A program made the position numbers and the translations under genes. Source: a virus. Taken from it: a stretch of DNA of 64,000 nt. Position 1 is the stretch's first letter. Each line of letters begins with the position of its first letter. This document shows, piece after piece, positions 12,701 through 40,588 of the stretch. The notes beneath the pieces are model-generated. The model was not told where the DNA came from. It saw only the letters and a list, made by a program, of their open reading frames with translations, and made no database searches. The stretch covers positions 5,934 to 69,933 of the IMG/VR virus record IMGVR_UViG_3300038441_001651; one strand, written 5' to 3'.

Positions 12701-13931
12701 ACTCGGTGTCGGCGAGCGACGAAACATCGCCAGACTCAACAGCAGAGGTAAAGGCTTCTTCTACCGAGGCACGATTCTTGGCCCGGGCAGGTTCAGCACC
12801 GCCAAGTTCGGCGGACAGCTGGAAGTTACCGCCAACCAGTGCACCAATGGTGGCACCTTCGACAATTTCTTCCAGAGTTGGGTCACCCAGCTTGGCTCGC
12901 GCTTCAGCATAGGTTTGGTAGCCTTCAGTGATGCCTTCTTTGGCGGCAGCGCCACCAACAGCACCAGCGCGGCTCATTGCACCGCGAGCATTACCCGAAC
13001 CTGCAGCACGCATGCTGCGTAGTACAGAGGCATCACCCACCAGTTCGGCAGCAGCTGCGGATGCAGCGAATGCACCCATTTCAGTACGCTGGCTTGCGTC
13101 GGGGATCTGACCGTCGTTGTTCAGGTAGTACTCTTGCAGGCCTTCGCGGTATAGGTCAGCACCGTAACCGGCGTTGGTACCTACCAGCAAAGCAGGGTTT
13201 ACAGCGGCAGCTGCCAGCTGTGGGATGTTCTCGACGGTGTACTCAGCAACCGCTTGTGGCGATTGCAGGCCGGTGGCCAGGGCATTACCTGCAGTTTTCA
13301 GGATGCCTTTGGCACCGGTCAGCAAACCATCAACGATCTCACCATCTTCCAGCTGATAGCGGGCATCACGCAGTTGCGCAACACCATCAGCAGTTTCACG
13401 ACGAATATCACGGCTCAGGGTATCCCGGGCAGTGTTGTCGACGATGCTGGAAATGTCGAAGAAGTCAGCCACATCTTGGCCAACTTTCTGCAGACCTTGG
13501 GCACCTTGCAGGCGCTCCATGAAGGTTTGCGGGATACCGTCGTCACCGGGTGCTTGTTGCGCCAGGAGAGCCAGGTCATTTTCGTTTTCAGTGCCGGCCA
13601 TCCAGCGGTTGTACGCCTGCACCTGCTCTTCCGGTACGGAAGCCAAGGCACCAGAGGAAATGGCGTCAATTGGCAGGGTTGCCAGGTTACCGGCCAGGCG
13701 GCTTGCGCCAGAAACCAAGGAAGCACCGAGGTTGGCCGCACGGCCAATGGTGTCGTCAGCGTCGTAGCCCATTTTTTCAATCAGCGCCTGCTTCTTCTGT
13801 TCAGAAGCTACAGCTACCTGGGCAGATTTCTGCTCGGTATCAAAAAGGGGGCGGAAGCCCCCAGTTTGTGCTGTAGGCAGGCCGGCTGGGAACAATTGGT
13901 CGAAACCGTAGTTCTCGTCACCGTTTGCCAT
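3759..13931 (-). CDS. virion-encapsidated RNA polymerase (N4 gp50-like vRNAP)
   Basis: 3390 aa; T7-superfamily motifs EVDGVTNGP, GRNIIKKPLTALMFGS, LNVHDAL; HExxH (THELVH) in C-terminal part; no cysteine seen, as in N4 vRNAP. Confidence 0.97.
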   Translation of the reverse strand: MANGDENYGFDQLFPAGLPTAQTGGFRPLFDTEQKSAQVAVASEQKKQALIEKMGYDADDTIGRAANLGASLVSGASRLAGNLATLPIDAISSGALASVPEEQVQAYNRWMAGTENENDLALLAQQAPGDDGIPQTFMERLQGAQGLQKVGQDVADFFDISSIVDNTARDTLSRDIRRETADGVAQLRDARYQLEDGEIVDGLLTGAKGILKTAGNALATGLQSPQAVAEYTVENIPQLAAAAVNPALLVGTNAGYGADLYREGLQEYYLNNDGQIPDASQRTEMGAFAASAAAAELVGDASVLRSMRAAGSGNARGAMSRAGAVGGAAAKEGITEGYQTYAEARAKLGDPTLEEIVEGATIGALVGGNFQLSAELGGAEPARAKNRASVEEAFTSAVESGDVSSLADTESATYDPVRAVEALHQMSLNEGADVAANLAQADEIQQNLTADLSSVQARLDNTSPERVAQIGELISQMEAAGVDQAEVADMREIHEAVSSYTPEQRKADEAELARLQSQLDAVQQAGERLRVDTSPEPAAVEAMANEAQTGDVQAADRLLTLTMTNPEAVDTQVADALAQSEALSVGQRTAMRLFSEAQVAANALKGLTGVRSDIATGGDGFKGIPQYRNAIRMALANGNEDAARSQVDGIRAFAASRVSKLDAITTAYEQVKGTNKSINIVRNEQGEWGPTDLKGQALKARGGLVVDARSFRLRDGVAAEADVLAKTAAAFEALVNAAPTPAAAPVVQSGDFEQGEVIVPATEAVAEPAVESAQVAPAVEETAAPAADQEAAVVPEEAPAQVEQADSATDRAAGKLTAIGEQTGVAVTADNYTSVNLVSELFSQESGNDTDASLRPLVAVKDFASAIKAGEATVQDFLDQKDPLSGPQTAALNAFFNFAQYSAQAVRKQFRVTATRAKRPDFFYRDMAQFLQNADGQIDENLATAVSFGIFSWANENATQLRNSDEAINAILLKDLDDEVSPAAYQTLSLIGTRESVLASQLGGRIAQALGLRPNQQGTNAELSKLEASVGARALAAMVELGILERKQLADTTLQALMNSGEKGNPRVTHTFYSVVSQEVNGKREPAPIVKRIRERSTGSQSVLARLMSVETKGVEPSYTPVKFNQQFAKRTGQAIPKGLVEILDKEGAKAHVVRQNMWHVWGRLSKQALYAMGGVVSTTDTPTHVENLASREAKNDGLIQQIDNFDAFVNTMASDPSTNGLEQELFFGRSVWKPQRVGLTANVVNPQTSKIHRHMLAMAGWNADVVLADKASMDNFKLRVMEAFGKKTEANTTSVVLAGYDAMISAPVIQDGINALVDVLRDSDTPTNEEAIVAAVKAAGENFHSFDALVSLAEQRIAEQDGKPSFTTAMMGEVDGVTNGPMLSLLMLGAKGYDTLNQGGFFQLGQLNKDGEQLVQFNDYKAMGNLDLYESSIAGALNNLVGRNTNMLDAMQVITGQLKNDDNTVTSKGRNIIKKPLTALMFGSNPTTAVQGMADAFIDATYDSIERAAAARDNEATKKLLTAVNVLLVNKKLALDTQMGYERALETKLSDVQKNALKKSFYELLGQPTEAALGDTYATFIARRNVINQTAQMSFEIFNAVRDGVIEHVEANSGEVARNTAGNAIRTLTKGQQAEVDAILGDMAPILQTAMSSAAGQREAGMYMAKTQRKLDSSLPFEQEVAFGDMVNTIAPDGTMNGIGSSRVSSTRTVEIDPGVMPFITSIHSSDSAIASAVYGTMEALNVHDALGVDLNNVAKVGQELNKATYNTMLNYSSATAMATMFDEVLQGAARVMQNPALAARIQPKLREKAIERAKRKRGSVYDQVVAIRETARQADTDKLEILAEMQAVGQYATDLGSYVVTPEDRAAAVTKLKEVGSTFNPAAEAIAEQLDVAAAVDPAVYQPGQSAVLSNNSVTTLAPSTSLNTLASVEQTPQVEQVIDSMVSGNRTLADAVQILPENQAAEVVEAVRAATVGKVSVWGQLGAPVVQSDVNLVQLLSQNKLSAHNLIDALVEYVQDPFQRTVLKMARKGIPSNMPVTYVTAETGPEGAFGEGVDKSRGWFAQRNGSSALFIKSPEFVESGITPELLTHELVHAALANLVDTHEGKNTAIGRAVADLEAIRAKAAEHIGNNGALSAQFRNATSNVHELLAWGLTNQAFQRDVLAQIQVEQRNRSFLDGLKSFIGKLTTMLFGDNKPANNNGLANLVANSAALFQEAAAVRDARASRTHKYEDAVDHVNAMTAEQVFEELGNLPGTKASGAHVAYLKDLLTSVTEPIYGPYGAFKEQASANRAITPMDVFLKASATGKLPFSSDAVASQFILSQQEAFVLESVEATVTHALNAKETVFIRQGLENLYKEAKATLKPANFLQGEWSTATQAEKDIAQAKYDLIFRPAAPVAGKSNHLARFAALGLASAEVRHVLGFSTANQEVELKSLPWASRLTELFRRLMTRLASLATHVTPGMAGNVALSTLVEQLVDIEAKRKARVADRRLGLMDQAEAYITGGAGTVREKLDALGQSKMLRNSRIPGARAASVALSTLAGDRLDDVLDHVTKVRDASLRNRHGLAMGLLTEWRGNYDSRNLATELFKGAKAIEQERKAVIENTVSAVNAAFNNGGQDLTQPQRDAMTKVLLRTNAQAIVAAKGVAGLRDLMEDRSAMAAYRTELENQVAALTGFSQYMISQTKDLAYHKVVGGSTSANLMLSTRNIAAMYGTKKAGQANAVAADLVPVLDQLMAVYGIEYSADTDVNHAKQVLRTEMNRQDDGNGIDFLLKLHKGLQEKSTDDLFNGTEALQQSGYVPEIHDNKIEVLLVEAKDVEAHVRAGFTVGSRLQMDPNVKALKGGNRVLMTRRGAGQMGILTGALSFTGMQAKGSSPVTEALNMMQGTQTTSVAMRQQIAQAKAQAIDELFTRGANYDPRKATGGHMAPTLAPDGRIADYRHLMIEHNRDVLLDRDNSMDQVMGVLAGQIVDKVSSANQNADVVRSLYDQYKADYTKRPASYLRVSADSADSQIAEMYRLLPESTKREIKKVWKDDAMYVPADQLDLILGYRKFSLTNAFQVLPADRNLMEKVLTGITEAMFGAKAALRVGQAEDIMQALVKEMKDILVIKNVLTLAGNIMSNMTLLAWEGVPLRDAAQYHAVAIKGALDYRKDSKRAMQLQQALDIGYFPDRAPAEQELVELRDRLARNPIKPLIDAGLMPTIVEDVEVDDDRYTYKAQFERKLDRFTSQVPAWVRTVGKQVYMTHDTATYKFLSQTTQLSDLVARYALYQHATTRVKDPLSHADALKLAEESFVNYDLPSHRTLQYLNDMGLVMFTKYYLRIQKVIMRLVREHPARGLMLGVADNFFSGLQSVMDSNWLNKIGNNPMQDGALGFIGSLKELPAIKML

Positions 13932-29191: not shown

Positions 29192-29245
29192 GTGGATACC
29201 TTCGGGTGTTCACCACTATTCTTTTCCTTAGCTAGGAGATACACC

Positions 29246-29542
29246 ATGTTCAAGCAAATCTTCGCAATGATCGCCCAGTTCGCACTGATGCTGACCAACC
29301 TGTTCTCTGCAGGTACCAAGCTGAGCAACGCTGCTGTCCACTCCGCTTCCTGGGTGGAAGGTGCTGCTGAAGGCTTCAACGAGATCGCTACTCTCGAACG
29401 TAACGAGAAACTCGATGCTCTGCGTGGCAAGTACGACATCAACCAGCGCATCCGTGCTGCTGAACAAGCTCTGTCCGCTTCTGATCTGGAAGCCAAGCTC
29501 AAGCTGCTCAAGGCTGAAGCCAAGAACGAAGTAGCTGCGTAA
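29246..29542 (+). CDS. first early gene, N4 gp1-like
   Basis: SD AGGAG; amphipathic N-terminus plus coiled coil; position as first early gene. Confidence 0.6.
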   Translation: MFKQIFAMIAQFALMLTNLFSAGTKLSNAAVHSASWVEGAAEGFNEIATLERNEKLDALRGKYDINQRIRAAEQALSASDLEAKLKLLKAEAKNEVAA

Positions 29543-29932: not shown

Positions 29933-29950
29933 TCACCTTCGGTGCTGTAA
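29933..29950 (+). promoter_or_regulatory. vRNAP-type hairpin promoter P-c
   Basis: TCACC-TTC-GGTGC-TGTA-A directly upstream of paralog array A. Confidence 0.65.
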
Positions 29951-29971: not shown

Positions 29972-30199
29972 ATGGACTATCTGCTGTTACCTAACGGAAC
30001 TGTGCTGGCACTGAAAGCATTGGACAGTGTTCCTTCTGTTATAAGGCGTGCCAATGAACAACGTGCTATATGTACCTATTGGTACGTCGCAGAGAATGAT
30101 CAATGGTGTTGTGCCTTCAATGAAGCGCGTGGAGGCATTGCAATTGATCGCTCCTGTGTACCTGATGTTGTATTGCTTGCACATACGATGGTGACTTAA
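29972..30199 (+). CDS. early paralog family member 1
   Basis: SD GGAGG; MDYLLLPNGTV...VPDVVLLAHTMVT. Confidence 0.8.
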   Translation: MDYLLLPNGTVLALKALDSVPSVIRRANEQRAICTYWYVAENDQWCCAFNEARGGIAIDRSCVPDVVLLAHTMVT

Positions 30200-30442
30200 A
30201 TGGAATACATGCTGCTGGCTGATGGTACGGTGAAGTCTTTCCCGTGCCTATCTACAGGCACTCAGATCCTTGAAGCTTTGAAAGCCCATAACGGAGTTAG
30301 CCATTACTGGTGGGACGGTGTTTACGAGAACACTTGGCGGGTGTGGCATATAACCCACCAAATTGGTGCCCGTAATGGTGGTTTCCCTGTAAAAGAAGAA
30401 GATGTCCCTGAAGTTATCAAACTTGCTCGAGTGCTGGAGTAA
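30200..30442 (+). CDS. early paralog family member 2
   Basis: MEYMLLADGTV...VPEVIKLARVLE. Confidence 0.8.
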   Translation: MEYMLLADGTVKSFPCLSTGTQILEALKAHNGVSHYWWDGVYENTWRVWHITHQIGARNGGFPVKEEDVPEVIKLARVLE

Positions 30443-30444
30443 CT

Positions 30445-30690
30445 ATGGCTGACTATTTGTACTTTGCTGATGGCACTGCCGAAGCTGTTGAAGAACTCGA
30501 TATGCGAGCCCTGCGTGAGCGTATGCATATGCGTAGTGCTGAAGCCACTTACTGGGTGTTTGCGAATGATGAGACCCAGAAGGCTGGTTGGGTCATGTGT
30601 ACTATGCGTATGGCCACCAACCGCAGCATAACAGAAGATGAAGTGCCTGAATCTGTACGCATGCTGCACTTAATTGCAGGAGGCTGCTGA
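30445..30690 (+). CDS. early paralog family member 3
   Basis: MADYLYFADGTA...VPESVRMLHLIAGGC. Confidence 0.8.
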   Translation: MADYLYFADGTAEAVEELDMRALRERMHMRSAEATYWVFANDETQKAGWVMCTMRMATNRSITEDEVPESVRMLHLIAGGC

Positions 30691-30951
30691 ATGGAAGCTG
30701 AGTACCTGCTGAAAGCCAATGGCGAAGTCCTTGTCATAGCGGCCTCTGCGAACTGGGAGCAGCTACAGATGCTGCTCACCCTCACAGGTGCCCATTCGTA
30801 TTGGTTCCCGCGGTGGAATGATGAAGATGAGCCAGATAGCCTATATCGGGACTCGTGGGGCATGTTCCTGCCTGGGGACGATAGTTATGCCATCGTAAAA
30901 ACCCCGCAAGTACCTGAAGTTATACGCCTAGCCCATCTAATGGTGGGCTGA
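30691..30951 (+). CDS. early paralog family member 4
   Basis: MEAEYLLKANGEV...VPEVIRLAHLMVG. Confidence 0.8.
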   Translation: MEAEYLLKANGEVLVIAASANWEQLQMLLTLTGAHSYWFPRWNDEDEPDSLYRDSWGMFLPGDDSYAIVKTPQVPEVIRLAHLMVG

Positions 30952-30966
30952 CCTTCGGTCATGTGA
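30949..30966 (+). promoter_or_regulatory. vRNAP-type hairpin promoter P-d
   Basis: TGACC-TTC-GGTCA-TGTG-A, overlapping the preceding stop codon. Confidence 0.7.
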
Positions 30967-30997
30967 CGAAAGTTAAACCAAATAAACAGGAGTTCAA

Positions 30998-31297
30998 ATG
31001 TTCTTTGAAGCTATCTTCACCATCTGCATGACCGACCCTGCGACTGAAGTTACTACTTGTCGCATCATGGTCACTGAAATGACTCAGCTCGCCAGTTCTA
31101 ACACTCAATGTGTGCAAAAAGCTGAGATGTTGTCCAAGAGTGTGGGCGCTGCTGCACGTAAGCAGTTCCCACAACTGAAGTTCAGCGGTGAGGCTGTGTA
31201 CTGTGGCAGTACCGCTACTTACACCGAAAGTATCACCAAACTAGTCAAGTCGGGCTATGAAATGTCCGGCTTCAAGTATGTACAGGAGCGGTTCTGA
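30998..31297 (+). CDS. hypothetical early protein (possible signal peptide, Cys pairs)
   Basis: SD AGGAG; MFFEAIFTICM start. Confidence 0.7.
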   Translation: MFFEAIFTICMTDPATEVTTCRIMVTEMTQLASSNTQCVQKAEMLSKSVGAAARKQFPQLKFSGEAVYCGSTATYTESITKLVKSGYEMSGFKYVQERF

Positions 31298-31566
31298 TGA
31301 AACCAAGTGAAATGATCCAAGCTGCTATCGACAGTGGTATCTACAAAAGCAGTCTTTACATGTGCAACGCTGTAAAGAATTTGCCGGGCGCGCGGTACCT
31401 AGATGTATGTGATTGTCAAATGGCCATCACTAAACGCATTTATCCGTTTGCTACGCTGCCTGCGTACATCGCACATCGTGATGGCATGAAGGGATACCCA
31501 AACTACCAACAGCGTGTGGAGTTTTGGCTGGAGTTCATCGAAGAACTGAAAAAGCAAAACCGATAA
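31297..31566 (+). CDS. hypothetical early protein
   Basis: TGATG overlap, 89 aa. Confidence 0.7.
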   Translation: MKPSEMIQAAIDSGIYKSSLYMCNAVKNLPGARYLDVCDCQMAITKRIYPFATLPAYIAHRDGMKGYPNYQQRVEFWLEFIEELKKQNR

Positions 31567-31645
31567 TCTAAAAATGCAAATTTGACGATTTCGGCGAGAA
31601 AAACGATAAACCAAAGGGATAGATTCCCGCAGTTGAGGTATAGCA

Positions 31646-31846
31646 ATGCCGTTCCCACTCTATGCAATCCTCGTTGCCCTTTCCGTTGTGGCCTGTATCG
31701 AAATATGCGTTAGCTTTCTCGAATGGGTCCAAGAAAACTGGTATGGCCCACACCCGAACACAAAACCGTATCAGTGGAAGCGCATGTGCATCATTGCGCT
31801 GGTGCTGATCACTACCATGCTGTTGTTCAAGTGGGGTCAGCCATGA
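31646..31846 (+). CDS. small two-TM membrane protein
   Basis: SD GAGGT; two hydrophobic segments. Confidence 0.65.
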   Translation: MPFPLYAILVALSVVACIEICVSFLEWVQENWYGPHPNTKPYQWKRMCIIALVLITTMLLFKWGQP

Positions 31847-32145
31847 TCAAGCTGCATGAGGTGCCGCCGGATATCTACGCAGAGCACCTTGCCCACCAGA
31901 AGTCCCAGGTTGCCCGGGCATTGCGGCTGTATGTGCGCACGAAGGGCTTCACCTACAGGCATGGCGCCTACCTCGTAGGCTGCAGCTATAACGCCTTCGG
32001 CCATGTCATGCGTGGTGAGGAGTGGAGGGTATCCTTCGACCTCATCTTCCGTATGGCTACCGTGTTCGGTATCAAAATCCACATTGGGGTGTCTCTGCCC
32101 CAGAACGATGTAACCTGTAAGACCGCTGGCCCTTCGGGCCTGTAA
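31843..32145 (+). CDS. XRE-like helix-turn-helix protein
   Basis: ATGA overlap; FTYRHGAYLVGCSYNAFGHVMRG..VSFDLIFRMATVFG fits an XRE HTH pattern. Confidence 0.6.
   Translation: MIKLHEVPPDIYAEHLAHQKSQVARALRLYVRTKGFTYRHGAYLVGCSYNAFGHVMRGEEWRVSFDLIFRMATVFGIKIHIGVSLPQNDVTCKTAGPSGL
32128..32145 (+). promoter_or_regulatory. vRNAP-type hairpin promoter P-e
   Basis: GGCCC-TTC-GGGCC-TGTA-A. Confidence 0.7.
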
Positions 32146-32200
32146 AGGCATACGTCTGCCACAAAATCCCTTTCTGATCCAATATTCTGGAGTATTTCCC

Positions 32201-32542
32201 ATGGCCGTTACCCGTAACCAAGATCGCAACAACGCCCCTGCTGCCCGTACTGAGCGTGAGCCAAGCCAAGCCAAGAAGACCCTAGGCTTCTTCAACATCA
32301 ACATCCCTACCGTCGGCGGTACACCGATCCGCGTCGATGCTGTACGCCTGATGGAAGGCACCAAGGTGCATGAGCAGCTGGCTGCATACCTCGGCTGCAC
32401 TCGCCCCGGCGACGAGAAGTTGCAAGGTGAAGAGCTGGTGGCCGAGAAGGCCAAGCGTCTGGCTGAAGTGGTCTCCAAGCTGGAGTTCAGCTTCAACCCA
32501 ACCCGTACCGAAGAAGAGTCCCTGCTGGCTCTCGGCGTCTGA
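32201..32542 (+). CDS. possible N4 gp2-like ssDNA-binding RNAPII activator
   Basis: SD GGAG, high-expression codon usage, own hairpin promoter and downstream UUCG hairpin (32550-32573); only weak recalled resemblance to N4 gp2. Confidence 0.4.
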   Translation: MAVTRNQDRNNAPAARTEREPSQAKKTLGFFNINIPTVGGTPIRVDAVRLMEGTKVHEQLAAYLGCTRPGDEKLQGEELVAEKAKRLAEVVSKLEFSFNPTRTEEESLLALGV

Positions 32543-32594
32543 CCTACCTGGCCACTACCTTCGGGTGGTGGCCTACCTTTTGGAGAGCAATCCA

Positions 32595-32681
32595 ATGGTA
32601 AAGATCATCGCTTCGTGCATGCTTCGCGTAACCCTGTACCTTTCCGTCTGCATTTCCCTCTTTGCACTGTTTATTAACTAA
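32595..32681 (+). CDS. 28-aa hydrophobic peptide
   Basis: MVKIIASCMLRVTLYLSVCISLFALFIN; SD GGAG. Confidence 0.45.
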   Translation: MVKIIASCMLRVTLYLSVCISLFALFIN

Positions 32682-32691
32682 GGAGCTTCAA

Positions 32692-33432
32692 ATGTTCGGT
32701 GAAATCATTCAACTCGTTCCTCACATGGTCGGTTACGGCTTCACTGTGCTGCTTTCGTTGCTGGTGGGTTACCATCTGCGCGAAAAGCGGCATGAGGTTA
32801 ACCTGAATGCGGCAATCGCCAACTTCGAAGAAGGCTGTGCTGGTCTTCGCGCAATAAACCAAGAGAATCTGAAGATCGAGCGCGCTGTGCGGCGTGAGCT
32901 GGAAATCTCCGTACTCAAGTGCGGTGAATCCATTGAAAAGATGGCTCAAGAGCTGGAAGCTGAGAAGAGGCGTGCTGACTTCAACGATGGCTTCCGTAGG
33001 GCAATTGTTGAACCATTGGTAGCCCTACGTCTATGGAATACTGGAAACATGGATGTTCGCCCGTCTTCACTGCTCAATGTGCTTGTAGCGCACGCCGAAG
33101 ACTGTGTATTGAACCCCGAAATGAGCAAACGAGCGAAGAACCTGTTCATTCGTGGTGTACGTAAGGGCGCCAAGCAAGGGCGTGAGCAGATGGCCAAGCT
33201 GATGCAGAAGTCCATCGACAATCAGGCTGCGACCATCGAAAGCTATGGCCGTGCTTACCAGATTGCTGAAAAGCGTCGTGCTTTGTTCCGTATTGGTGTG
33301 AATAACGTCCTGAAGGACAAGATTGGTCTGCCTGCTGTACGCCGTAGCATACTGAATGGTATCGCAGAGGAAGTAGCACGTCTGCATGACGTGGAAGCGC
33401 GTAAAGAACTCACCAAAGCTCAAGGAGAATAA
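32692..33432 (+). CDS. membrane-anchored coiled-coil protein
   Basis: SD AAGGAG; N-terminal TM then coiled coil. Confidence 0.75.
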   Translation: MFGEIIQLVPHMVGYGFTVLLSLLVGYHLREKRHEVNLNAAIANFEEGCAGLRAINQENLKIERAVRRELEISVLKCGESIEKMAQELEAEKRRADFNDGFRRAIVEPLVALRLWNTGNMDVRPSSLLNVLVAHAEDCVLNPEMSKRAKNLFIRGVRKGAKQGREQMAKLMQKSIDNQAATIESYGRAYQIAEKRRALFRIGVNNVLKDKIGLPAVRRSILNGIAEEVARLHDVEARKELTKAQGE

Positions 33433-33434
33433 CT

Positions 33435-33743
33435 GTGGAAGAAGCACTGATGATCGCGTTTGTCGCCCTGTTTATCCTGACCGTTGTCAAATTCGGTCGG
33501 GTTCTGTCGCAAAGCCAGAAAGGGAGTGAGATTCACGAATTACTGGGCATGAAGTTGGAAATTGTGCACCAGATGCTGGGGAATTTCCCACAAAAGCGTG
33601 AAACCATCTGGTGTGATGGCGTCAAAGATGCTCAACAGCATCTCAATGCTCGTATTCGTGCTGGTATCGCACATGCCTCGCTCTATGAGCGGGGTAAGCG
33701 CACTCACCGCATGAATCATGACGGTATCTTGGTGCCGGTATGA
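33435..33743 (+). CDS. hypothetical membrane-anchored protein
   Basis: SD AAGGAG, GTG start, N-terminal TM. Confidence 0.7.
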   Translation: MEEALMIAFVALFILTVVKFGRVLSQSQKGSEIHELLGMKLEIVHQMLGNFPQKRETIWCDGVKDAQQHLNARIRAGIAHASLYERGKRTHRMNHDGILVPV

Positions 33744-34162
33744 CCAAAAATACCAATAAAGAAGGTATGGCACAGGAGCGTCTGCTTAAAGGCGTTCCTG
33801 ATGAAGAAATGGCGCAATTTTGCGATGTCTGGGCAAAAACGGCAGACCCTATGTACTCGACAAATAACGTGGTACCTCGTGCGTACATTGAACAGGAAGT
33901 GATAGTTGCTGCTTTCAAAAATGGTGTCGTACTAGAGACCGAGACCAAAGCCCGGTTTAAGCTGGGTGACTGGGCTCAAGCTGCACATAAGAAGCACGGG
34001 CCTTGCCGCGTGATTGCCTTTAAACCAGGTGAGCTGATGTGGCGTGAGGTACGCTGGAAGAATGCCAACAGCGGTACTCTGTACCGTAGGCCTTCCTTCA
34101 TGACGCTCAATCCTGCGCAAGTGCCTCAAGAGCTACAGCTTGCTGCATTAATGTTGGGGTAG
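33740..34162 (+). CDS. early paralog family member 5 (N-terminally extended)
   Basis: Ends VPQELQLAALMLG. Confidence 0.75.
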   Translation: MTKNTNKEGMAQERLLKGVPDEEMAQFCDVWAKTADPMYSTNNVVPRAYIEQEVIVAAFKNGVVLETETKARFKLGDWAQAAHKKHGPCRVIAFKPGELMWREVRWKNANSGTLYRRPSFMTLNPAQVPQELQLAALMLG

Positions 34163-34164
34163 TT

Positions 34165-34413
34165 ATGGAATATCGTTACTTCTTTACCAAAGACGGCGCA
34201 ATCCAAGGGGTTGAGACGCTTAATGTAACGACCTCGTTCATATACTTGCAGAACATAGGTCAAATGTACGAAGGGTGCCACTGCTGGGCTAAGTTAGGGA
34301 ATACCACATGGTATTCCTGCCCAGCTGCGGGCTTTGCGTTCACCCGCATGGAAGCTCACCAATCATGGGAAGAAGTCCCTGATTACGTTCGAATGGCAGA
34401 GGCTTTGTTATGA
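34165..34413 (+). CDS. early paralog family member 6
   Basis: MEYRYFFTKDGAI...VPDYVRMAEALL. Confidence 0.8.
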   Translation: MEYRYFFTKDGAIQGVETLNVTTSFIYLQNIGQMYEGCHCWAKLGNTTWYSCPAAGFAFTRMEAHQSWEEVPDYVRMAEALL

Positions 34414-34640
34414 GTCTGACTGTTTTCATCAACTGTGGTAACGCATGTGAGGTGCGCGACATCCCTGAGTTTGACTGGAAGGCTCTGGACGCAGTTTGTG
34501 CAGAGTTTTCTGAGAATCACCTATGGGCGCACCTGAGTACGCAAGGATGGTGTATCTACTCCCGTGTTCATAAGCGCTGGAAGGTTATAGCATCCAGTGC
34601 TGTACCGGAAATCATCAAAATGGCGAGGTTGCTGCATTGA
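34410..34640 (+). CDS. early paralog family member 7
   Basis: Ends VPEIIKMARLLH. Confidence 0.8.
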   Translation: MSLTVFINCGNACEVRDIPEFDWKALDAVCAEFSENHLWAHLSTQGWCIYSRVHKRWKVIASSAVPEIIKMARLLH

Positions 34641-34882
34641 TCGGCCCTTGGTACGTAGTTCGTGATGGAGACATCATTGACGTGCTTGAAAAGGCAACGC
34701 TCGACTCTAAGGGGTGGATAAACTACCGAAAACGCATAAGCGAGCATGAAAATGCAGTAGCTTGGAAAAAAGACAAAGAAGGATGCTGGCATAGCTTACG
34801 AAGCTCTGATGCTCTTAATGGGCATTGGGTATCCTTCGTTACCCCACCAACTTGTGTAAAAATGGCGGATATTCTGCAATGA
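34637..34882 (+). CDS. early paralog family member 8
   Basis: TTG start overlapping stop; WYVVRDGDII...PPTCVKMADILQ. Confidence 0.7.
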   Translation: MIGPWYVVRDGDIIDVLEKATLDSKGWINYRKRISEHENAVAWKKDKEGCWHSLRSSDALNGHWVSFVTPPTCVKMADILQ

Positions 34883-35139
34883 CTACGTGGTATATCATAG
34901 AAGACGACATTATTGTGCACGTTTTCTCTGCTTCGGCGCACGGAGAAGTCAGTACGTTTGATAGGCGGGAAATACTACGCAAGAGTTATCCTAACGCCAC
35001 AGCATGGCTCTGCAAGCCTTGGCTTGATGAGGAACTACGCTGGTACTCGCTCCCATGCAAATATGCGCACATGGCTTTGTGGGATCACGCACAACCTCCC
35101 GAAGTTTTACAAATGGCTAAATTACTGGAGATTTCGTAA
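34879..35139 (+). CDS. early paralog family member 9
   Basis: MTTWYIIEDDII...PPEVLQMAKLLEIS. Confidence 0.75.
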   Translation: MTTWYIIEDDIIVHVFSASAHGEVSTFDRREILRKSYPNATAWLCKPWLDEELRWYSLPCKYAHMALWDHAQPPEVLQMAKLLEIS

Positions 35140-35573
35140 TGAAAGAACTGAAACGTGGTGACATGATGGAAGTTTTCGGTGAAGTGGATCACTTCATCGT
35201 TGCTGTGGGGAGTAAGCTGCGTAGCGAAACCAAAGAGCTGATTATGCTCAACGGTCTCTCCGGGGTTCTGGGTACTAAATACCCTACCCTACCGGCTGCT
35301 ATGGGAAAGTGGATCGCTGAGACCTGTGGTGATGGCGGTGCCTTCTACCTGCGTTGCGCAGGCAAGGTGGGCATCATACAGAACATGGATCTGCCTCGCA
35401 ATGGGGTGAACCTCTCCTACATCGGAGCTGGTGTGCTCATGCTGTCCCAGCTGGCACGCCTGCACTCCGAGAAGAAGTACGCCCTCGAATGGCCTGGCCA
35501 CACCGAGCCTGAGTGGTTGCTGAAGAACATGTTCGATAAGCTGCCGGCTAACGTGGAGGTCTGGAAGCCATGA
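35139..35573 (+). CDS. degenerate macrodomain-like protein
   Basis: KRGDMMEV, DHFIVAV, LIMLNGLSGVLGTKYP follow the macrodomain GD / beta / MGxGxA..YP layout with substitutions; GC-richer codons than flanking paralogs. Confidence 0.45.
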   Translation: MKELKRGDMMEVFGEVDHFIVAVGSKLRSETKELIMLNGLSGVLGTKYPTLPAAMGKWIAETCGDGGAFYLRCAGKVGIIQNMDLPRNGVNLSYIGAGVLMLSQLARLHSEKKYALEWPGHTEPEWLLKNMFDKLPANVEVWKP

Positions 35574-35806
35574 TCAGGGGCGCGGTGTCAATCCTGTTCA
35601 ACCCCGTTACCCTTACCGTAGAGCGCTTCCACGAAGGCTGGCTCAGGACAGCCGAATGGGGCGCCAACACCCTCTATTACCTAACTGGGTTTGGGGAAGG
35701 TGAGCCGGGCCGCTGGTTTTACTACAGCAGCGAGCACGACGGCCGTGACATCAAGTTCGACAACATGCCGGAGGAGGTGCGCTTGGCGTACCTGTTAAGC
35801 CAATGA
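35570..35806 (+). CDS. early paralog family member 10
   Basis: Ends MPEEVRLAYLLSQ. Confidence 0.8.
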   Translation: MIRGAVSILFNPVTLTVERFHEGWLRTAEWGANTLYYLTGFGEGEPGRWFYYSSEHDGRDIKFDNMPEEVRLAYLLSQ

Positions 35807-36066
35807 ATGCTGTAGATCCTTGGGGTAATCCTTATCCCATAAGCAAGTTTGAACCCGTATCAATTACATGGGACTACGTGAACGAGGTTGTGGTGGAAAA
35901 GAACCACTTCAGCCTGTTCTCTACTACGTGGGAGTTTCTATATTCCCCGCAGGACCCTTTCGCCATCTCTGAGTGGAAGGTTTGCCGTTGTCCGGGCGAT
36001 GAATCTTGGGTGCATGAGAGCGACGTGCCCGAAATGGTTCGAATGGCCTTATTGGTGTGCACATGA
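35803..36066 (+). CDS. early paralog family member 11
   Basis: Ends VPEMVRMALLVCT. Confidence 0.8.
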   Translation: MNAVDPWGNPYPISKFEPVSITWDYVNEVVVEKNHFSLFSTTWEFLYSPQDPFAISEWKVCRCPGDESWVHESDVPEMVRMALLVCT

Positions 36067-36278
36067 AAGCAAAACAGATTGGTTTCTGCCGAGTTACTCA
36101 AAGTTTGGTCACGGATAGTAAGATTCTGGATATTCCGTATCTTCAAGATGATATGGATGTTTACAGCAAGACCTCCATGGGCCCTTGGAAGGTATGGGCG
36201 CCTGAGTACCAGTGTTACAAGATCATTCACGAAAATGAGGTCCCTGACGTAGTTAAAATGGGGGTAATGCTGCTATGA
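36063..36278 (+). CDS. early paralog family member 12
   Basis: Ends VPDVVKMGVMLL. Confidence 0.8.
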   Translation: MKAKQIGFCRVTQSLVTDSKILDIPYLQDDMDVYSKTSMGPWKVWAPEYQCYKIIHENEVPDVVKMGVMLL

Positions 36279-36526
36279 GTCGTGTTCCTATTATCTTTAA
36301 CAGCGTAAGCCAGAAAGTTATTCGTATAGAAAGCCTGCCTGAGCATAATCTAATTCCTGATGAATACTTTCATGAAGTTGATATAAACGGGGAACTTACA
36401 CTGTACGTGCATGTGACCGGACGAAAAGATAGTAAGGAGTGGCTGTGCTGGAACAAAAGGGCACAAGAATGGTTCCATTTTCCTAATCCGCATGAGCAAA
36501 TCAAGCTTGCGAGGATGTTGGTATGA
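36275..36526 (+). CDS. early paralog family member 13
   Basis: Ends PHEQIKLARMLV. Confidence 0.75.
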   Translation: MSRVPIIFNSVSQKVIRIESLPEHNLIPDEYFHEVDINGELTLYVHVTGRKDSKEWLCWNKRAQEWFHFPNPHEQIKLARMLV

Positions 36527-36810
36527 AACGTGTACCTCACGTAACAAATAATGAACATATGGCCATCTACACCCTTGTGTTGGTCATTAATGGGCTGCCA
36601 GAGGTGTATAGGAACGAGCGAATTGACAATATCATCAATGAAACTCGCGTAGCCTACATAGAAGATCCTTTTATGCTTTGCTATATAAAAGACTCTAAGG
36701 GTTGGCGTAAAGGTGAGTGGTTTCATTCACAGAGACGATACTTCTGGGACTCTGTAGCAAACAACTCAGTTCCTGACATTATCCTACTTGCGGAGATGGT
36801 TGCACCATGA
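36523..36810 (+). CDS. early paralog family member 14
   Basis: Ends VPDIILLAEMVAP. Confidence 0.8.
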   Translation: MKRVPHVTNNEHMAIYTLVLVINGLPEVYRNERIDNIINETRVAYIEDPFMLCYIKDSKGWRKGEWFHSQRRYFWDSVANNSVPDIILLAEMVAP

Positions 36811-37097
36811 GTGCCTTGTGGGTCATCTTGAATGATGACAAAACGGAAGTTATTGAGGTGTTTACCTCTGAAGATTCAAATTCACAACCTTTTCAGGAGA
36901 AGTTCAAGAAACATAAAGCAGGCACCGTCTTTTGTCGCCGAGCCGAGACTTATAGCGTAAGAGTTAACTGGTATTACAGCATGCATGTCTGGCATGACGT
37001 AACAAGGTGGGGTTACGGTGAGCCTGACCTGATTACATGGTCTGCATGCTATATCATCCCTGAAATAATCAAAATGTTGGAGATCGTAAGCCAATGA
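36807..37097 (+). CDS. early paralog family member 15
   Basis: Ends IPEIIKMLEIVSQ. Confidence 0.8.
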   Translation: MSALWVILNDDKTEVIEVFTSEDSNSQPFQEKFKKHKAGTVFCRRAETYSVRVNWYYSMHVWHDVTRWGYGEPDLITWSACYIIPEIIKMLEIVSQ

Positions 37098-37360
37098 TGA
37101 AAGCTTTCAATGTGATAAACGGGGAACTGGTTGCCGTAGTAACTTCCGCAGGCTTCGACATGACAGCTACTGGTTTAGAGTTAGCGTTCCCCCACGGTAA
37201 AGTTTACCGTTGGGTATCTTCACTACCGATCGACTTTATCCCGTGGCGTGTCCTGGTGCGTAAGTTTCATAAGCATGGAAGAGATTACTATGGGACATTA
37301 ATGCCCATAAAAGAAGTCGATTTACCTGAAGTGGTGCGCTTAGCGCACATGGTTTCGTAA
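37094..37360 (+). CDS. early paralog family member 16
   Basis: MMKAFNVINGELV...LPEVVRLAHMVS. Confidence 0.8.
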   Translation: MMKAFNVINGELVAVVTSAGFDMTATGLELAFPHGKVYRWVSSLPIDFIPWRVLVRKFHKHGRDYYGTLMPIKEVDLPEVVRLAHMVS

Positions 37361-37383
37361 GATCAATAAAAGGAGTTATATCC

Positions 37384-38313
37384 GTGAAAGCTACCCTTAT
37401 GCTCACCGACGACATGCAAAAGGCAAACGAGTACCGCTTTGCCCGCCATCATGTCGATAAGTACATGCGTGATTACGTCTTGAATGACGTTGAAGTTATC
37501 CCGCTGCTGGATAAGGGTGTTGAGATACTCACTGAGTGGGTAAATACCGAATTCAGCTACGAAAGCAAGAACATCCGCGTATCCGCCCTTAAAGGCATGG
37601 ATCTGCGTGAACTGGTCACCGAAGTAGTGGTGGCCTCGGCCTATTGCCAGCATGAAGAGCTGTTCACCAGCTTCACTGCACGCATGGCCGGTATACTGGG
37701 CTGGGACGACAAGAAGTCGAGCATCACCACAGTGGCTGAGATCACTGCGGTGCTGTGCGATACTGACCTGTTCGACCTGACCCAAGCAAACCGCTTCAGC
37801 TCTTGGAACATTCTCAGCAACATCACCTTGTCGCTGGAACTGCAGGAATACATAGCAAACTGTGCCTACCTGCCCCCACTGGTGCATAAACCAAGTAAGC
37901 TGAGGCACAACCGCGATACTCCGTATCTGACCATCGGGCAAGACTCGGTGATCCTCAACAAGGGTCACCACAACGACGACGTGTGTCTTGATGTGCTGGA
38001 TTCCAAGAATGCTGTGGCTTTGTCGCTGGATTTGGAATTCCTCAGCACTGTCGAGGAAGAGCCCAACAGCGAGCTGGATTCCCCAGAGAAACAGAACATG
38101 TGGTTGCGTATGAAGAAGCAATCGCATGAGTTCTACCTGCTGATGGCGAAGCAAGGCAACAAGTTCTACCTGCACCACAAATATGACAAGCGTGGACGTA
38201 TCTACGCTCAGGGCTACCACATTTCTACCCAAGGGGCTCCCTACAAGAAGGCGATGATTGAATTCGCCAATAAGGAAGCTGTAACTGATATCCCGCAGGA
38301 GTTCCAACTATGA
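37384..38313 (+). CDS. RNA polymerase II subunit 1 (N4 gp15-like RNAP1)
   Basis: SD AAGGAG, GTG start; LPPLVHKP, FYLHHKYDKRGRIYAQGYHISTQG motifs of the N-terminal half of T7-like RNAP. Confidence 0.93.
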   Translation: MKATLMLTDDMQKANEYRFARHHVDKYMRDYVLNDVEVIPLLDKGVEILTEWVNTEFSYESKNIRVSALKGMDLRELVTEVVVASAYCQHEELFTSFTARMAGILGWDDKKSSITTVAEITAVLCDTDLFDLTQANRFSSWNILSNITLSLELQEYIANCAYLPPLVHKPSKLRHNRDTPYLTIGQDSVILNKGHHNDDVCLDVLDSKNAVALSLDLEFLSTVEEEPNSELDSPEKQNMWLRMKKQSHEFYLLMAKQGNKFYLHHKYDKRGRIYAQGYHISTQGAPYKKAMIEFANKEAVTDIPQEFQL

Positions 38314-38498
38314 AACGCTTCATGCTGTTTGGTCGCGATTGTTATTATCCGGCAGGTGGGTGGCAGGACTTCGAAGGAGACTTTGATACTGTCGAAGATG
38401 CTCGCGCGCATATCCTTGCTCAAGAGTATCGTCGTGATGCTTATGATTTGATCGACGTGGACACTAAAGAAGATCACTGGAAGGAGCTTAACCTTTGA
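38310..38498 (+). CDS. small conserved-type phage protein
   Basis: FMLFGRDCYYPAGGWQDFEGDFDTVEDA pattern recalled from many phages. Confidence 0.7.
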   Translation: MKRFMLFGRDCYYPAGGWQDFEGDFDTVEDARAHILAQEYRRDAYDLIDVDTKEDHWKELNL

Positions 38499-38713
38499 AA
38501 GAAGCGTGGTTTGAAATTAAACGGGCTGCCAAGGCCTTTATCATAATGTGCAAGGCATTCGAGAATGCTTTTGTACACACCCTTGAACAACCGGAGAAAA
38601 AGAAATGAAAGAGATGAAACCAAAGCCTAAACCTGTGAAACAAGAACCTAAGGCTGTCCGCCGTGTTGGCGCAATGCGCTTCACCAAGTGTGGCACCTTC
38701 CGAGGTTTCAATT

Positions 38714-39007
38714 ATGGCTAGATTGTTCATTAGGTACGAGCCAGTGGAATGTCATGTAGCTATTGGGCTTGGGCTTAACAGCTTCAAAGTGGATGCTCGC
38801 CATTTAACCGATAGAGGGTTGGATATTTGCAGGTACTCTATCGACCCCTGTTACGTGTGCTTTGTGCATGAAGGTAAATGCTACGCAGGGCGTACATTTA
38901 ACACATTCACCGCATTTGGTGAAAAAATTGTTAGTGTCTCATGCGTGCCATTCAACGATTATTCACCTGGCCAGAAAATGATTCTGGCTGACATGATACT
39001 GGGGTAA
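38714..39007 (+). CDS. early paralog family member 17 (weak motif)
   Basis: Starts ATGGCTAGATTGT like member 18; ends SPGQKMILADMILG. Confidence 0.6.
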   Translation: MARLFIRYEPVECHVAIGLGLNSFKVDARHLTDRGLDICRYSIDPCYVCFVHEGKCYAGRTFNTFTAFGEKIVSVSCVPFNDYSPGQKMILADMILG

Positions 39008-39009
39008 CT

Positions 39010-39312
39010 ATGGCTAGATTGTATGTTGCAGGCGAGCTTGTGGATGCAAACTGGCCTGAGCCTAAACGGACAAGTACAGGGAACCACGTTTACACCCGTT
39101 CGAAGCCGTGTTGGGACGAAAAGCACGATAATGATATCCGTGTGCTTGTTTTTACCCGGTCTGGTGATTATGCCGTGTTTATCCCTAATGTTTACTGGGG
39201 CACTGCCCTAGGAAGGGACAAAGTGGAAGTATCATGGCACAGAGTGCATCATTCTAACCGTGAGCAATATATTCCAGACGTTTTCCGTCTGGAGCGCATG
39301 ATTCTCAATTAA
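39010..39312 (+). CDS. early paralog family member 18
   Basis: MARLYVAGELV...IPDVFRLERMILN. Confidence 0.75.
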   Translation: MARLYVAGELVDANWPEPKRTSTGNHVYTRSKPCWDEKHDNDIRVLVFTRSGDYAVFIPNVYWGTALGRDKVEVSWHRVHHSNREQYIPDVFRLERMILN

Positions 39313-39334: not shown

Positions 39335-40588
39335 ATGAAATTCTATACCCCGTTCCAGTGGCTGTGTGTTGATATCGCAAACCAAGGCTATGATGACAAG
39401 AAACTGTTCGAAGAACGTGTTGAGTGGGTGAAGGAGAACTTCGCCCGCTTGCCGTACCTGAACACCAGCAAGAAAGAACGTCCGCTGTACCTGAAGGCTG
39501 TCAATGCCCTGTACCGTGCTTGCCGCGGTCAACAGATCGGTCACATGGTTGGCTTGGATGCAACGTGCTCGGGCATGTCCATCATGTCCGTGGTCACCAA
39601 GTGCTTCAAGGGCTGCCTGGCCACCAACCTGATCGACCCTGACAAGCGCAATGACGCCTACACCATGGTCACGGACGCTGCCAGCAGAATGCTGGAAGGC
39701 GACCTGATCATTGACCGTAATGACGCTAAGCAGGCCACCATGACCACGCTGTACGGCTCGCAGAAGACTCCCCGGGAGATCTTCGGTACCGATACCGAGG
39801 AACTGGACGCCTTCTATGCTGGCTTGGTCGAGGTTGCCCCGCTGGCGGTAGAGTTGCTGGGTGACCTGCGTAACGCCTGGCAACCCTATGCGCTGGAACA
39901 CCGCTGGGTGTGCCCAGACAACTTCAACGTCCGTATCAAGGTGATGCAGAAGGTTGAGGGTGAGCGTGTCGAGGTTGACGAGCTGGACGGTGCCACGTTC
40001 ACCTATGACTATTACATCAATGAGGGTTCCAAGTCTGACCTGAAGCTGGTGGCCAACGTTACCCATTCGCTGGACGCCTACCTGCTCCGCTCCATGGAGC
40101 GTCGCTGTAACTACAACAAATCAGCTGTGACCAAGGCCCTGTGCCTGTTGCTGGATGAATACAAGCACCGTAAATCTGGCTTCCACGTTGAGTGGCACCT
40201 CGGCGAAGCAGTCAATCTTGCGCAACAACTCATTGCTGTTTGGGGGGGTTGCGAGATGCCAGATGCACGGCTGTTTGACGTGTTGAATGAACGCGATGTG
40301 CGCTTCATGGACGATAGGCATATCGCGCAGATGATTGCCTTGGCTGATCAACTGCTGGAACGCGAACCGTTCGAGATCGTCACCGTTCACGATGAGTTCA
40401 AGTGCCACCCGAACAACTGCAACTGGATGCGCCTTACCTATGCACAGATCATGGCCGATTTGGCCCGTGCTCGCGTGCTGGAGGACATCTACGAGCAGAT
40501 TACCGGTATGACCCCAACCTATGAGAAGAGCATGGACGGCGATGAGCTGGCTGCGCTGATTCTGGAGAGTAATTATGCGCTGTCGTAA
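39335..40588 (+). CDS. RNA polymerase II subunit 2 (N4 gp16-like RNAP2)
   Basis: T7-like catalytic motifs GLDATCSG, RNDAKQATMTTLYGS, ANVTHSLDA, TVHDEF. Confidence 0.95.
   Translation: MKFYTPFQWLCVDIANQGYDDKKLFEERVEWVKENFARLPYLNTSKKERPLYLKAVNALYRACRGQQIGHMVGLDATCSGMSIMSVVTKCFKGCLATNLIDPDKRNDAYTMVTDAASRMLEGDLIIDRNDAKQATMTTLYGSQKTPREIFGTDTEELDAFYAGLVEVAPLAVELLGDLRNAWQPYALEHRWVCPDNFNVRIKVMQKVEGERVEVDELDGATFTYDYYINEGSKSDLKLVANVTHSLDAYLLRSMERRCNYNKSAVTKALCLLLDEYKHRKSGFHVEWHLGEAVNLAQQLIAVWGGCEMPDARLFDVLNERDVRFMDDRHIAQMIALADQLLEREPFEIVTVHDEFKCHPNNCNWMRLTYAQIMADLARARVLEDIYEQITGMTPTYEKSMDGDELAALILESNYALS

Follow-up and report, generated by a model that had tools for sequence, protein, structure and literature searches.

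What are the many small genes in the early region of an N4-like phage genome, and what is the C-terminal motif that nearly all of their products share? Bases 5934-69933 of IMG/VR record IMGVR_UViG_3300038441_001651 (72,851 bp), the 64,000-nucleotide stretch that we refer to as the window, carry three early-region clusters of plus-strand genes, array A (29972-30951), array B (33740-37360) and array C (38714-39312), encoding proteins of 73-140 amino acids (aa; m13 has 71 aa when read from the ATG that overlaps the m12 stop). An initial annotation had interpreted them as an expanded family of about 18 genes, in which a constant C-terminal helix would serve docking, oligomerization or degradation and variable Trp-rich faces would bind different host targets. 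All open reading frames (ORFs) that it named are present in place on the plus strand, and they form, in the main, a true set of paralogues with a common predicted fold that diverges and turns over faster than the neighbouring core genes. The phage itself is an N4-like Pseudomonas phage, with a 3,390-aa virion RNA polymerase (vRNAP) encoded on the minus strand (3759-13931) and a split T7-like RNAPII (small subunit, 37384-38313; large subunit, 39335-40588). Its nearest named relative is phCDa (Shizishanvirus, host Pseudomonas fluorescens), with 81% identity in the RNAPII large subunit, compared to about 60% for Littlefix and 98PfluR60PP and about 48% for N4-like phages of P. aeruginosa. With 16-18 of roughly 100 genes, the family accounts for 5.8-6.6% of the phage DNA.

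The C-terminal motif has the form h-P-[ED]-x-[VI]-[KRQ]-[LM]-A-x-[LM]-[LVM] and is clearly enriched in the family. When all stop-to-stop segments of at least 40 aa in the six frames of the window were scanned with a loose regular expression, 17 of 839 segments matched, 16 of them belonging to the family and carrying the motif 1-4 residues from the C-terminus without exception; the sole match outside the family was a minus-strand segment (60394-60558). The m14 protein has the motif with one inserted residue (P-H-E-Q-I-K-L-A-R-M-L), making it the 17th carrier. A profile built from the 18 proteins matched exactly these 18 in the 72.9-kb genome and none in other frames. Upon iteration, the profile retained 16 window genes at E<=1e-8 and m19 at E=5e-5, picking no wrong frame or strand among 1,839 segments, while m18 was dropped. 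Profile-profile comparison with hhalign aligned m19 over 16 motif columns only (P=0.007). The m18 protein, the weak 18th member of the initial annotation, was rejected at this step as well (hhalign probability 0.2%). Its C-terminal helix is hydrophobic, with the Pro shifted, and the protein lacks Trp. It aligns to m19 within the first 18 residues only, and its model (pLDDT 64) matches only the phCDa orthologue. Based on these sequence comparisons, the family in the window comprises 16 solid members, with m19 probable by its motif and m18 doubtful. The 144-aa gene within array B does not belong to the family, being macro-domain-like instead.

Beyond the C-terminus, the members have diverged to an extent that pairwise similarity is detectable only within three small groups (m01-m04 with m17, m07/m13 and m08/m09), and the description of the intervening sequence as unalignable by eye is therefore fair. 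Alignment of the family nevertheless reveals the N-terminal hairpin and the central aromatic residues that had been noticed before, in the form of a [YFW]-x-[LIV]-[VLF]-x-[DN]..G-x-[VI] pattern and a [VLA]-[YF]-x-[WY] strand. Across 121 unique family sequences from 11 phages or contigs, the motif Pro is conserved in 99% and one Trp in 98%, and the helix positions have an information content of 2.0-2.75 bits, as opposed to less than 1 bit for most other positions. Profile match, h-P-[ED] helix, Trp and hairpin coincide in 16 window genes and in the members of related phages. In composition, the proteins are rich in Trp (3.85% vs 1.03% in core proteins), richer in Cys and mildly acidic, with a median isoelectric point of 5.9.

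Structure prediction points to a single compact domain. The AlphaFold model of m01, calculated with the alignment of the 18 paralogues, is a 75-aa monomer of strand-strand-helix-strand-strand-strand-helix topology (pLDDT 86, pTM 0.72), with the last 15 residues being the most confident (96 and 91). A Foldseek search of BFVD aligned this model over its full length to seven independently calculated models of phCDa paralogues, which come from different subgroups (TM-score 0.55-0.75), as expected for a common fold. A single-sequence ESM model of m02 was poor (pLDDT 0.46) and had no feature matches, and a homodimer prediction for m01 with the family alignment scored 0.01, which speaks neither for nor against pairing. 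According to the m01 model, the domain would be composed of an N-terminal beta-hairpin, a helix, a three-stranded meander bearing the invariant Trp, and the C-terminal helix. This last helix starts a few residues past the last strand, with no linker in between. Hydrophobic residues occupy 6-7 of its 10 positions, and the remainder form a single polar stripe (E/D, K/R/Q, x). Pro followed by Glu or Asp is a typical helix N-cap, and these two motif residues would cap the last helix, whereas the Val/Ile, Leu/Met, Ala, Leu/Met and Leu/Val positions would provide a broad hydrophobic face.

Model confidence, hydrophobic pattern and full-length superpositions thus argue for a core helix packed on the sheet. 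Conservation extends to the N-terminal hairpin and to the Trp, so the motif reads as a part of the core and not as a separable tail; its position at every C-terminus would follow from the domain ending at this point. VPExxxLAxLL is, on the strength of the models, most likely the final core helix of the domain. The suggestion of a separate docking module does not agree with the missing linker, the highest model confidence in this segment and its same placement in the phCDa models. A C-terminal degron fares no better, as the last 1-4 residues, where such a signal would sit, vary between members. Regarding the proposed variable Trp-rich faces, the proteins are indeed Trp-rich, but the one conserved Trp is core-like rather than part of a variable face, given that it is invariant (98%). 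The finding corrects the idea that the shared motif is necessarily a docking tag.

Searches against known families returned little. For all 18 proteins, Pfam yielded nothing below E=0.05 and PHROGs v4 only one match (E=0.0097), with no stretch passing; a Pfam scan of 28 family members gave no recurrent family, NCBIfam (searched with m05 only) no match, the PDB sequences no match to the family, and fold searches of the PDB and the AlphaFold DB no convincing match. The KTSC domain (PF13619) was considered for what we took to be a 'VP + helix' resemblance and then rejected, because among the 28 members only m17 scored against it, with 12.9 bits (E=0.093) compared to a threshold of 25 bits; no stretch passed, and the best part of that match was N-terminal. 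As judged from its sequence, the domain is undescribed: neither Pfam nor PHROGs nor NCBIfam contains a family that matches it. We found no description of the family in the searchable literature.

The family is restricted to a narrow group of phages. A HMMER search of 1.84 billion representative proteins gave 23 matches at E<=0.001, of which 22 have the family architecture, all of them encoded by this phage or by its close relatives; the odd one is a 4,211-aa protein without an aligned stretch. A word-indexed protein search with the family alignment retrieved only six proteins, all of them from the window or from close relatives. In local profile searches, which gave no matches in wrong frames or on the other strand of the relatives, we counted 16-18 copies in the window, 16 in L006, a 13-kb Logan contig of the closest relative, 13 in phCDa, 9-12 in each of six IMG/VR contigs, 8 in 98PfluR60PP and 6 in Littlefix. 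Ten other Schitoviridae genomes (Litunavirus, two Luzseptimavirus, two Cbunavirus, Arace01, Cavevirus, Dendoorenvirus, Gamaleyavirus, Zicotriavirus) had zero matches to the hidden Markov model within about 10 kb of RNAP1. The copy number is thus 6-16 per phage in the Shizishanvirus-like and Littlefixvirus phages and zero in all ten others. The expectation of related small genes in other N4-like Pseudomonas phages was borne out for these two clades and not beyond them, and by sequence the family is peculiar to N4-like phages that infect soil and plant pseudomonads. ORF17 of Ab09 may be a remote relative, being borderline in hhalign (probability 63%, E=7e-5). Several further candidates with similar hydrophobic end helices by eye, Ab09 ORF19-21 and LUZ7 gp9, gp11, gp18 and gp21, scored like negative controls in hhalign and were discarded. 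We also observed one unannotated family ORF each in phCDa (NC_048003.1, locus 9657-9890, E=4e-5) and Littlefix (locus 3874-4122, E=8e-15), both ending in the motif and both missing from the RefSeq annotations. Both phages are deposited as named isolates with named Pseudomonas hosts, and the family profile would annotate about 120 'hypothetical' proteins. For array B, no near-identical DNA was present among 50,697 phage records. Soil metagenomes carry the window stretch, with window-identical pieces in two soil runs that offer no usable population variation; the contigs of four other metagenome runs gave short, low-depth fragments only.

The copies within the genome are old. Since the closest pair of paralogues is only 31% identical, there are no recent duplicates, and the family is not undergoing 'accordion' amplification. 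Compared to L006, orthologues are 41-85% identical, m11 and m19 are missing and the slot of m07 is occupied by a different member, whereas RNAP1, RNAP2, the macro-domain-like protein and a homologue of Drc (see below) are 89-96% identical. Member m05 is the best conserved with respect to phCDa and ranks among the better-conserved ones between phages in general. For 12 orthologue pairs, the ratio of nonsynonymous to synonymous divergence (dN/dS) was 0.10-0.38, which indicates that each copy is constrained. The synonymous divergence itself was 0.45-2.3 in the family vs 0.22-0.47 in the neighbouring RNAPII, macro-domain-like and Drc genes, and this high dS argues for an exchange with more distant alleles as well as for looser constraint. 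The copies would represent ancient paralogues, each kept by purifying selection and gained, lost or swapped for divergent alleles between relatives.

The placement of the arrays suggests early expression. A hairpin motif (CCTTCGG-N3-TGTRA) occurs six times in the window vs 0.5 copies expected, all on the plus strand between 29059 and 32145, with stems of 4-5 bp and a TTC loop (GAA on the template strand), followed by TGTRA. Promoters of the N4 vRNAP are hairpins whose loop has a central purine on the template strand (PMC3715699), and we used a stem of about 4-7 bp, a 3-nt loop and a start about 11-14 nt downstream as criteria (PMC3715699, PMC9163698). In LUZ7, tandem early promoters precede the drc gene, and genes of this kind are early (PMC9163698); here, two of the hairpins (31994 and 32131) precede the Drc homologue, one lies 36 nt before m01 and another overlaps the stop of m04. 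By analogy, the six hairpins are likely vRNAP early promoters, and array A is predicted to have a vRNAP-type promoter of its own, as had been proposed. Arrays B and C possess no copy of the hairpin motif and would be read through from upstream. The six hairpins, the Drc homologue and the RNAPII genes lie in one strand block, which by analogy to the known phages places the arrays in an early unit. Following the example of N4 and LUZ7, the injected vRNAP would transcribe the genes during the first minutes of infection, producing long transcripts shared with Drc, the macro-domain-like protein and both RNAPII subunits. The region is also more AT-rich than the core, as stated initially, with a GC content of 43-54% vs 55-61% in the virion-gene half.

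Considering these data, we regard it as probable that the genes constitute a clade-specific family of small, soluble proteins built on one compact alpha/beta domain, with the motif as core helix, early expression and host-directed binding as its function. The structural and evolutionary parts of this interpretation are well supported, while a diversified set of host-directed binders is our best guess from position, variability and maintenance. The conserved core would act as a stable scaffold, with the variable first helix and the length-variable loops serving as copy-specific binding surfaces. Each copy would bind a different host protein, yielding a host-takeover or counter-defence repertoire for diverse soil pseudomonads, and from the genomic context an anti-defence or host-takeover role is plausible. 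A more specific version, in which the paralogues act combinatorially, each inhibiting one host immunity or toxin effector stoichiometrically in the manner of T4 Dmd/RnlA and the helix possibly pairing paralogues, is a tentative possibility; if it were true, copy content would set which soil Pseudomonas strains can be infected. Several points weigh against the binder interpretation. No member has a homology-based function, and the anti-defence idea has no other basis than gene position and variability. The high dS is better explained by allele exchange than by fast protein evolution alone, and whole-gene dN/dS values below 1 are no demonstration of diversifying selection on a surface. Moreover, burial of the helix is inferred from model confidence, hydrophobic pattern and superposition, and a hydrophobic helix may equally be an interface, making a shared contact possible.

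This last point leads to the alternative that the C-terminal helix is a separate module docking all members onto one partner, be it a hub protein of the host, the RNAPII/Drc machinery of the phage or the macro-domain-like protein, or onto each other, with the body of each protein bringing cargo or targets. No other contiguous segment is nearly as conserved as the helix, which is unusually hydrophobic for a surface helix of a 75-aa domain, as would suit an interface. One of its positions is mostly basic (K/R/Q in 82%) and probably exposed; in addition, the family always resides beside the macro-domain-like, Drc and RNAPII genes. However, no linker separates the helix from the last strand, it has the top confidence in the monomer and the same placement in independent paralogue models, and the hairpin and Trp are conserved along with it, as for one domain. 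In phages of the LUZ7 type and in Litunavirus, the macro-domain-like, Drc and RNAPII genes are kept while the family is represented by one borderline member at most, and these proteins therefore do not need the family. We accordingly consider docking unlikely. Even less probable is a role within the phage's own programme, in which the proteins would modulate or chaperone vRNAP, RNAPII or Drc or time the transition from early to middle expression. Members directly precede each RNAPII subunit gene and lie in one operon with Drc, and two sit between the RNAPII genes, a position that is kept in phCDa and L006. Nevertheless, their number and content vary between phages whose RNAPII is 85-96% identical, where core factors should be conserved; none was found within about 10 kb of RNAP1 in the ten other Schitoviridae genomes that use the same transcription scheme; and sixteen diverged copies are hard to fit to a housekeeping role.

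Two further explanations would dispense with a protein function of the motif or of the whole array. The motif could be kept by constraints on DNA or mRNA, namely by ribosome-binding and re-initiation signals or by boundaries for cassette shuffling. The genes are indeed translationally coupled, as had been claimed: 11 of 13 junctions in the run 33435-37360 are four-base start/stop overlaps, through which ribosomes would pass from gene to gene, and GGAG or GAGG for the next gene lies inside the last codons (the last 3-5 in most junctions). The mosaic gene content of relatives would likewise fit shuffling. Yet it is the variable codon following the conserved Ala that holds the Shine-Dalgarno sequence, and thus the coupling is real but does not explain the motif. 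The conserved motif residues use 3-5 codons each (four for Pro, four for Ala, four to five each for Val and Leu), and this synonymous diversity shows that selection acts on the protein and not on the DNA. Moreover, m04, m17 and m19 keep the motif without a coupled next gene. We judge this explanation very improbable. That the array is debris of neutral tandem duplicates or decaying genes seems scarcely conceivable. The small size, the presence/absence variation between relatives and the lack of a known function would be in keeping with decay, but all frames are open with start/stop coupling intact, dN/dS stays at 0.10-0.38 at dS values of up to 2.3, paralogues at <=31% identity keep the fold signature, and orthologues are kept across phages with an RNAPII large subunit identity of 81%.

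The interpretation as a diversified family of host-directed binders has parallels in other viruses. T4-type phages reportedly shuffle small early ORFs in a modular fashion within hyperplastic regions. Like these regions, the arrays are dense in small early genes without known function, AT-rich and variable between close relatives through gene gain, loss and replacement, and they may serve adaptation to different hosts. Unlike them, the arrays consist mostly of paralogues of one domain instead of unrelated ORFans, the genes are joined by stop/start overlaps instead of being arranged in promoter-stem-loop cassettes, and the conservation at gene borders is at the level of protein and not of DNA. 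Poxvirus host-range families and the multigene families MGF360/505 of African swine fever virus are diverged tandem paralogues linked to host range and immune evasion. They resemble the phage family by analogy only, in having many diverged paralogues of one fold that are kept by selection and vary in copy number; there is no homology, and the phage proteins have 75-100 aa and no recent duplicates. A functional analogy, with no sequence similarity, is provided by small proteins (60-120 aa) of early or immunity type that combine a sheet with helices and neutralize a toxin by binding it directly. Closer in phylogeny, Ka3 (Luzseptimavirus, PP056739.1) has about 21 tandem coupled small paralogous genes at 7-4356 (57-77 aa, about 65-aa helical proteins) that share a ...KY.KE... 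and Trp pattern and give 63 directed pairs at E<1e-3. This family is unrelated in sequence, of another secondary-structure type, located at another genome place and unmatched by our profile, and as a second case it shows that small-gene expansions recur in N4-like Pseudomonas phages. To our knowledge, paralogue families are uncommon in small phage genomes. Blocks of variable small early genes are known in kind, and 16-18 copies of one unknown domain in a 73-kb phage are an unusual variant. The family is also compact enough to test how one scaffold is diversified by a phage that faces variable hosts.

The features of the locus are listed in the table below.

Table. Family members, neighbouring genes and promoter-like hairpins in the early region of the window.
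Feature	Position	Strand	Evidence or remark
Hairpin motif copies	29059, 29178, 29936, 30952, 31994, 32131	+	motif search
Hairpin promoter-like motif (CACC-TTC-GGTG then CTGTAA)	29936..29950	+	36 nt upstream of m01
m01, 75 aa, member, array A	29972..30199	+	profiles; AlphaFold model pLDDT 86
m02, 80 aa, member	30200..30442	+	profiles
m03, 81 aa, member	30445..30690	+	profiles; L006 orthologue 54% identical
m04, 86 aa, member, last gene of array A	30691..30951	+	stop overlaps promoter-like hairpin 30949-30961
Drc homologue	32201..32542	+	BLASTP to LUZ7 gp14
m05, 140 aa, member with N-terminal extension	33740..34162	+	81% identity to L006, 52% to phCDa gp39
m06, 82 aa, member	34165..34413	+	profiles
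m07, 76 aa, member	34410..34640	+	profiles; different member in L006 slot
m08, 81 aa, TTG start, member	34637..34882	+	old tandem pair with m09
m09, 86 aa, member	34879..35139	+	profiles
Macro-domain-like gene, 144 aa, non-member	35139..35573	+	structure match, BLASTP
m11, 78 aa, member	35570..35806	+	profiles; absent from L006
m12, 87 aa, member	35803..36066	+	profiles
m13, 71 aa, member	36063..36278	+	ATG overlapping m12 stop; start in ORF list is GTG 36057
m14, 83 aa, member	36275..36526	+	one-residue motif insertion after Pro
m15, 95 aa, member	36523..36810	+	profiles
m16, 96 aa, member	36807..37097	+	profiles
m17, 88 aa, member, last gene of array B	37094..37360	+	just before RNAPII small subunit
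m18, 97 aa, doubtful	38714..39007	+	no iterated-profile or hhalign support
m19, 100 aa, probable by motif	39010..39312	+	just before RNAPII large subunit (39335-40588)

Two of the neighbouring genes can be described in more detail. The Drc homologue is 30% identical to LUZ7 gp14 over 109 residues (BLASTP, E=2e-10), the single-stranded-DNA-binding cofactor of RNAPII (PMC7145618). The product of the 144-aa gene in array B gave no Pfam (including PF01661), NCBIfam or PDB sequence match, and its Atlas structure matched a Macro cluster with a TM-score of 0.83 and DarT-Macro proteins with 0.76. It is homologous to LUZ7 gp19 (BLASTP, E=4e-26), annotated as 'phosphatase', as is its homologue ORF16 of Ab09. 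The gene is present in all four genera of Pseudomonas N4-like phages examined (Shizishanvirus, Littlefixvirus, Litunavirus and Luzseptimavirus), being kept in phCDa, Littlefix, LUZ7 and Ab09, whereas the surrounding family is not. Macro domains are often tied to the reversal of ADP-ribosylation, and as far as the structural match goes, this protein may reverse ADP-ribosylation in early infection.

Other early genes of the region are 53-92% identical between the window and L006. These encode a 99-aa protein that heads the early region (29243-29542), a protein of about 98 aa with a candidate helix-turn-helix-like label from sequence alone (31849-32145), a 247-aa protein (32689-33432) and a 102-aa protein with a hydrophobic N-terminus (33435-33743). 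Finally, the RNAPII small subunit gene is followed by a coupled 62-aa gene (38310-38498) that has no counterpart there in L006 or phCDa; at that site, L006 carries a 162-aa protein (10282-10770) whose sequence, by eye, suggests an HNH/AP2-like endonuclease.

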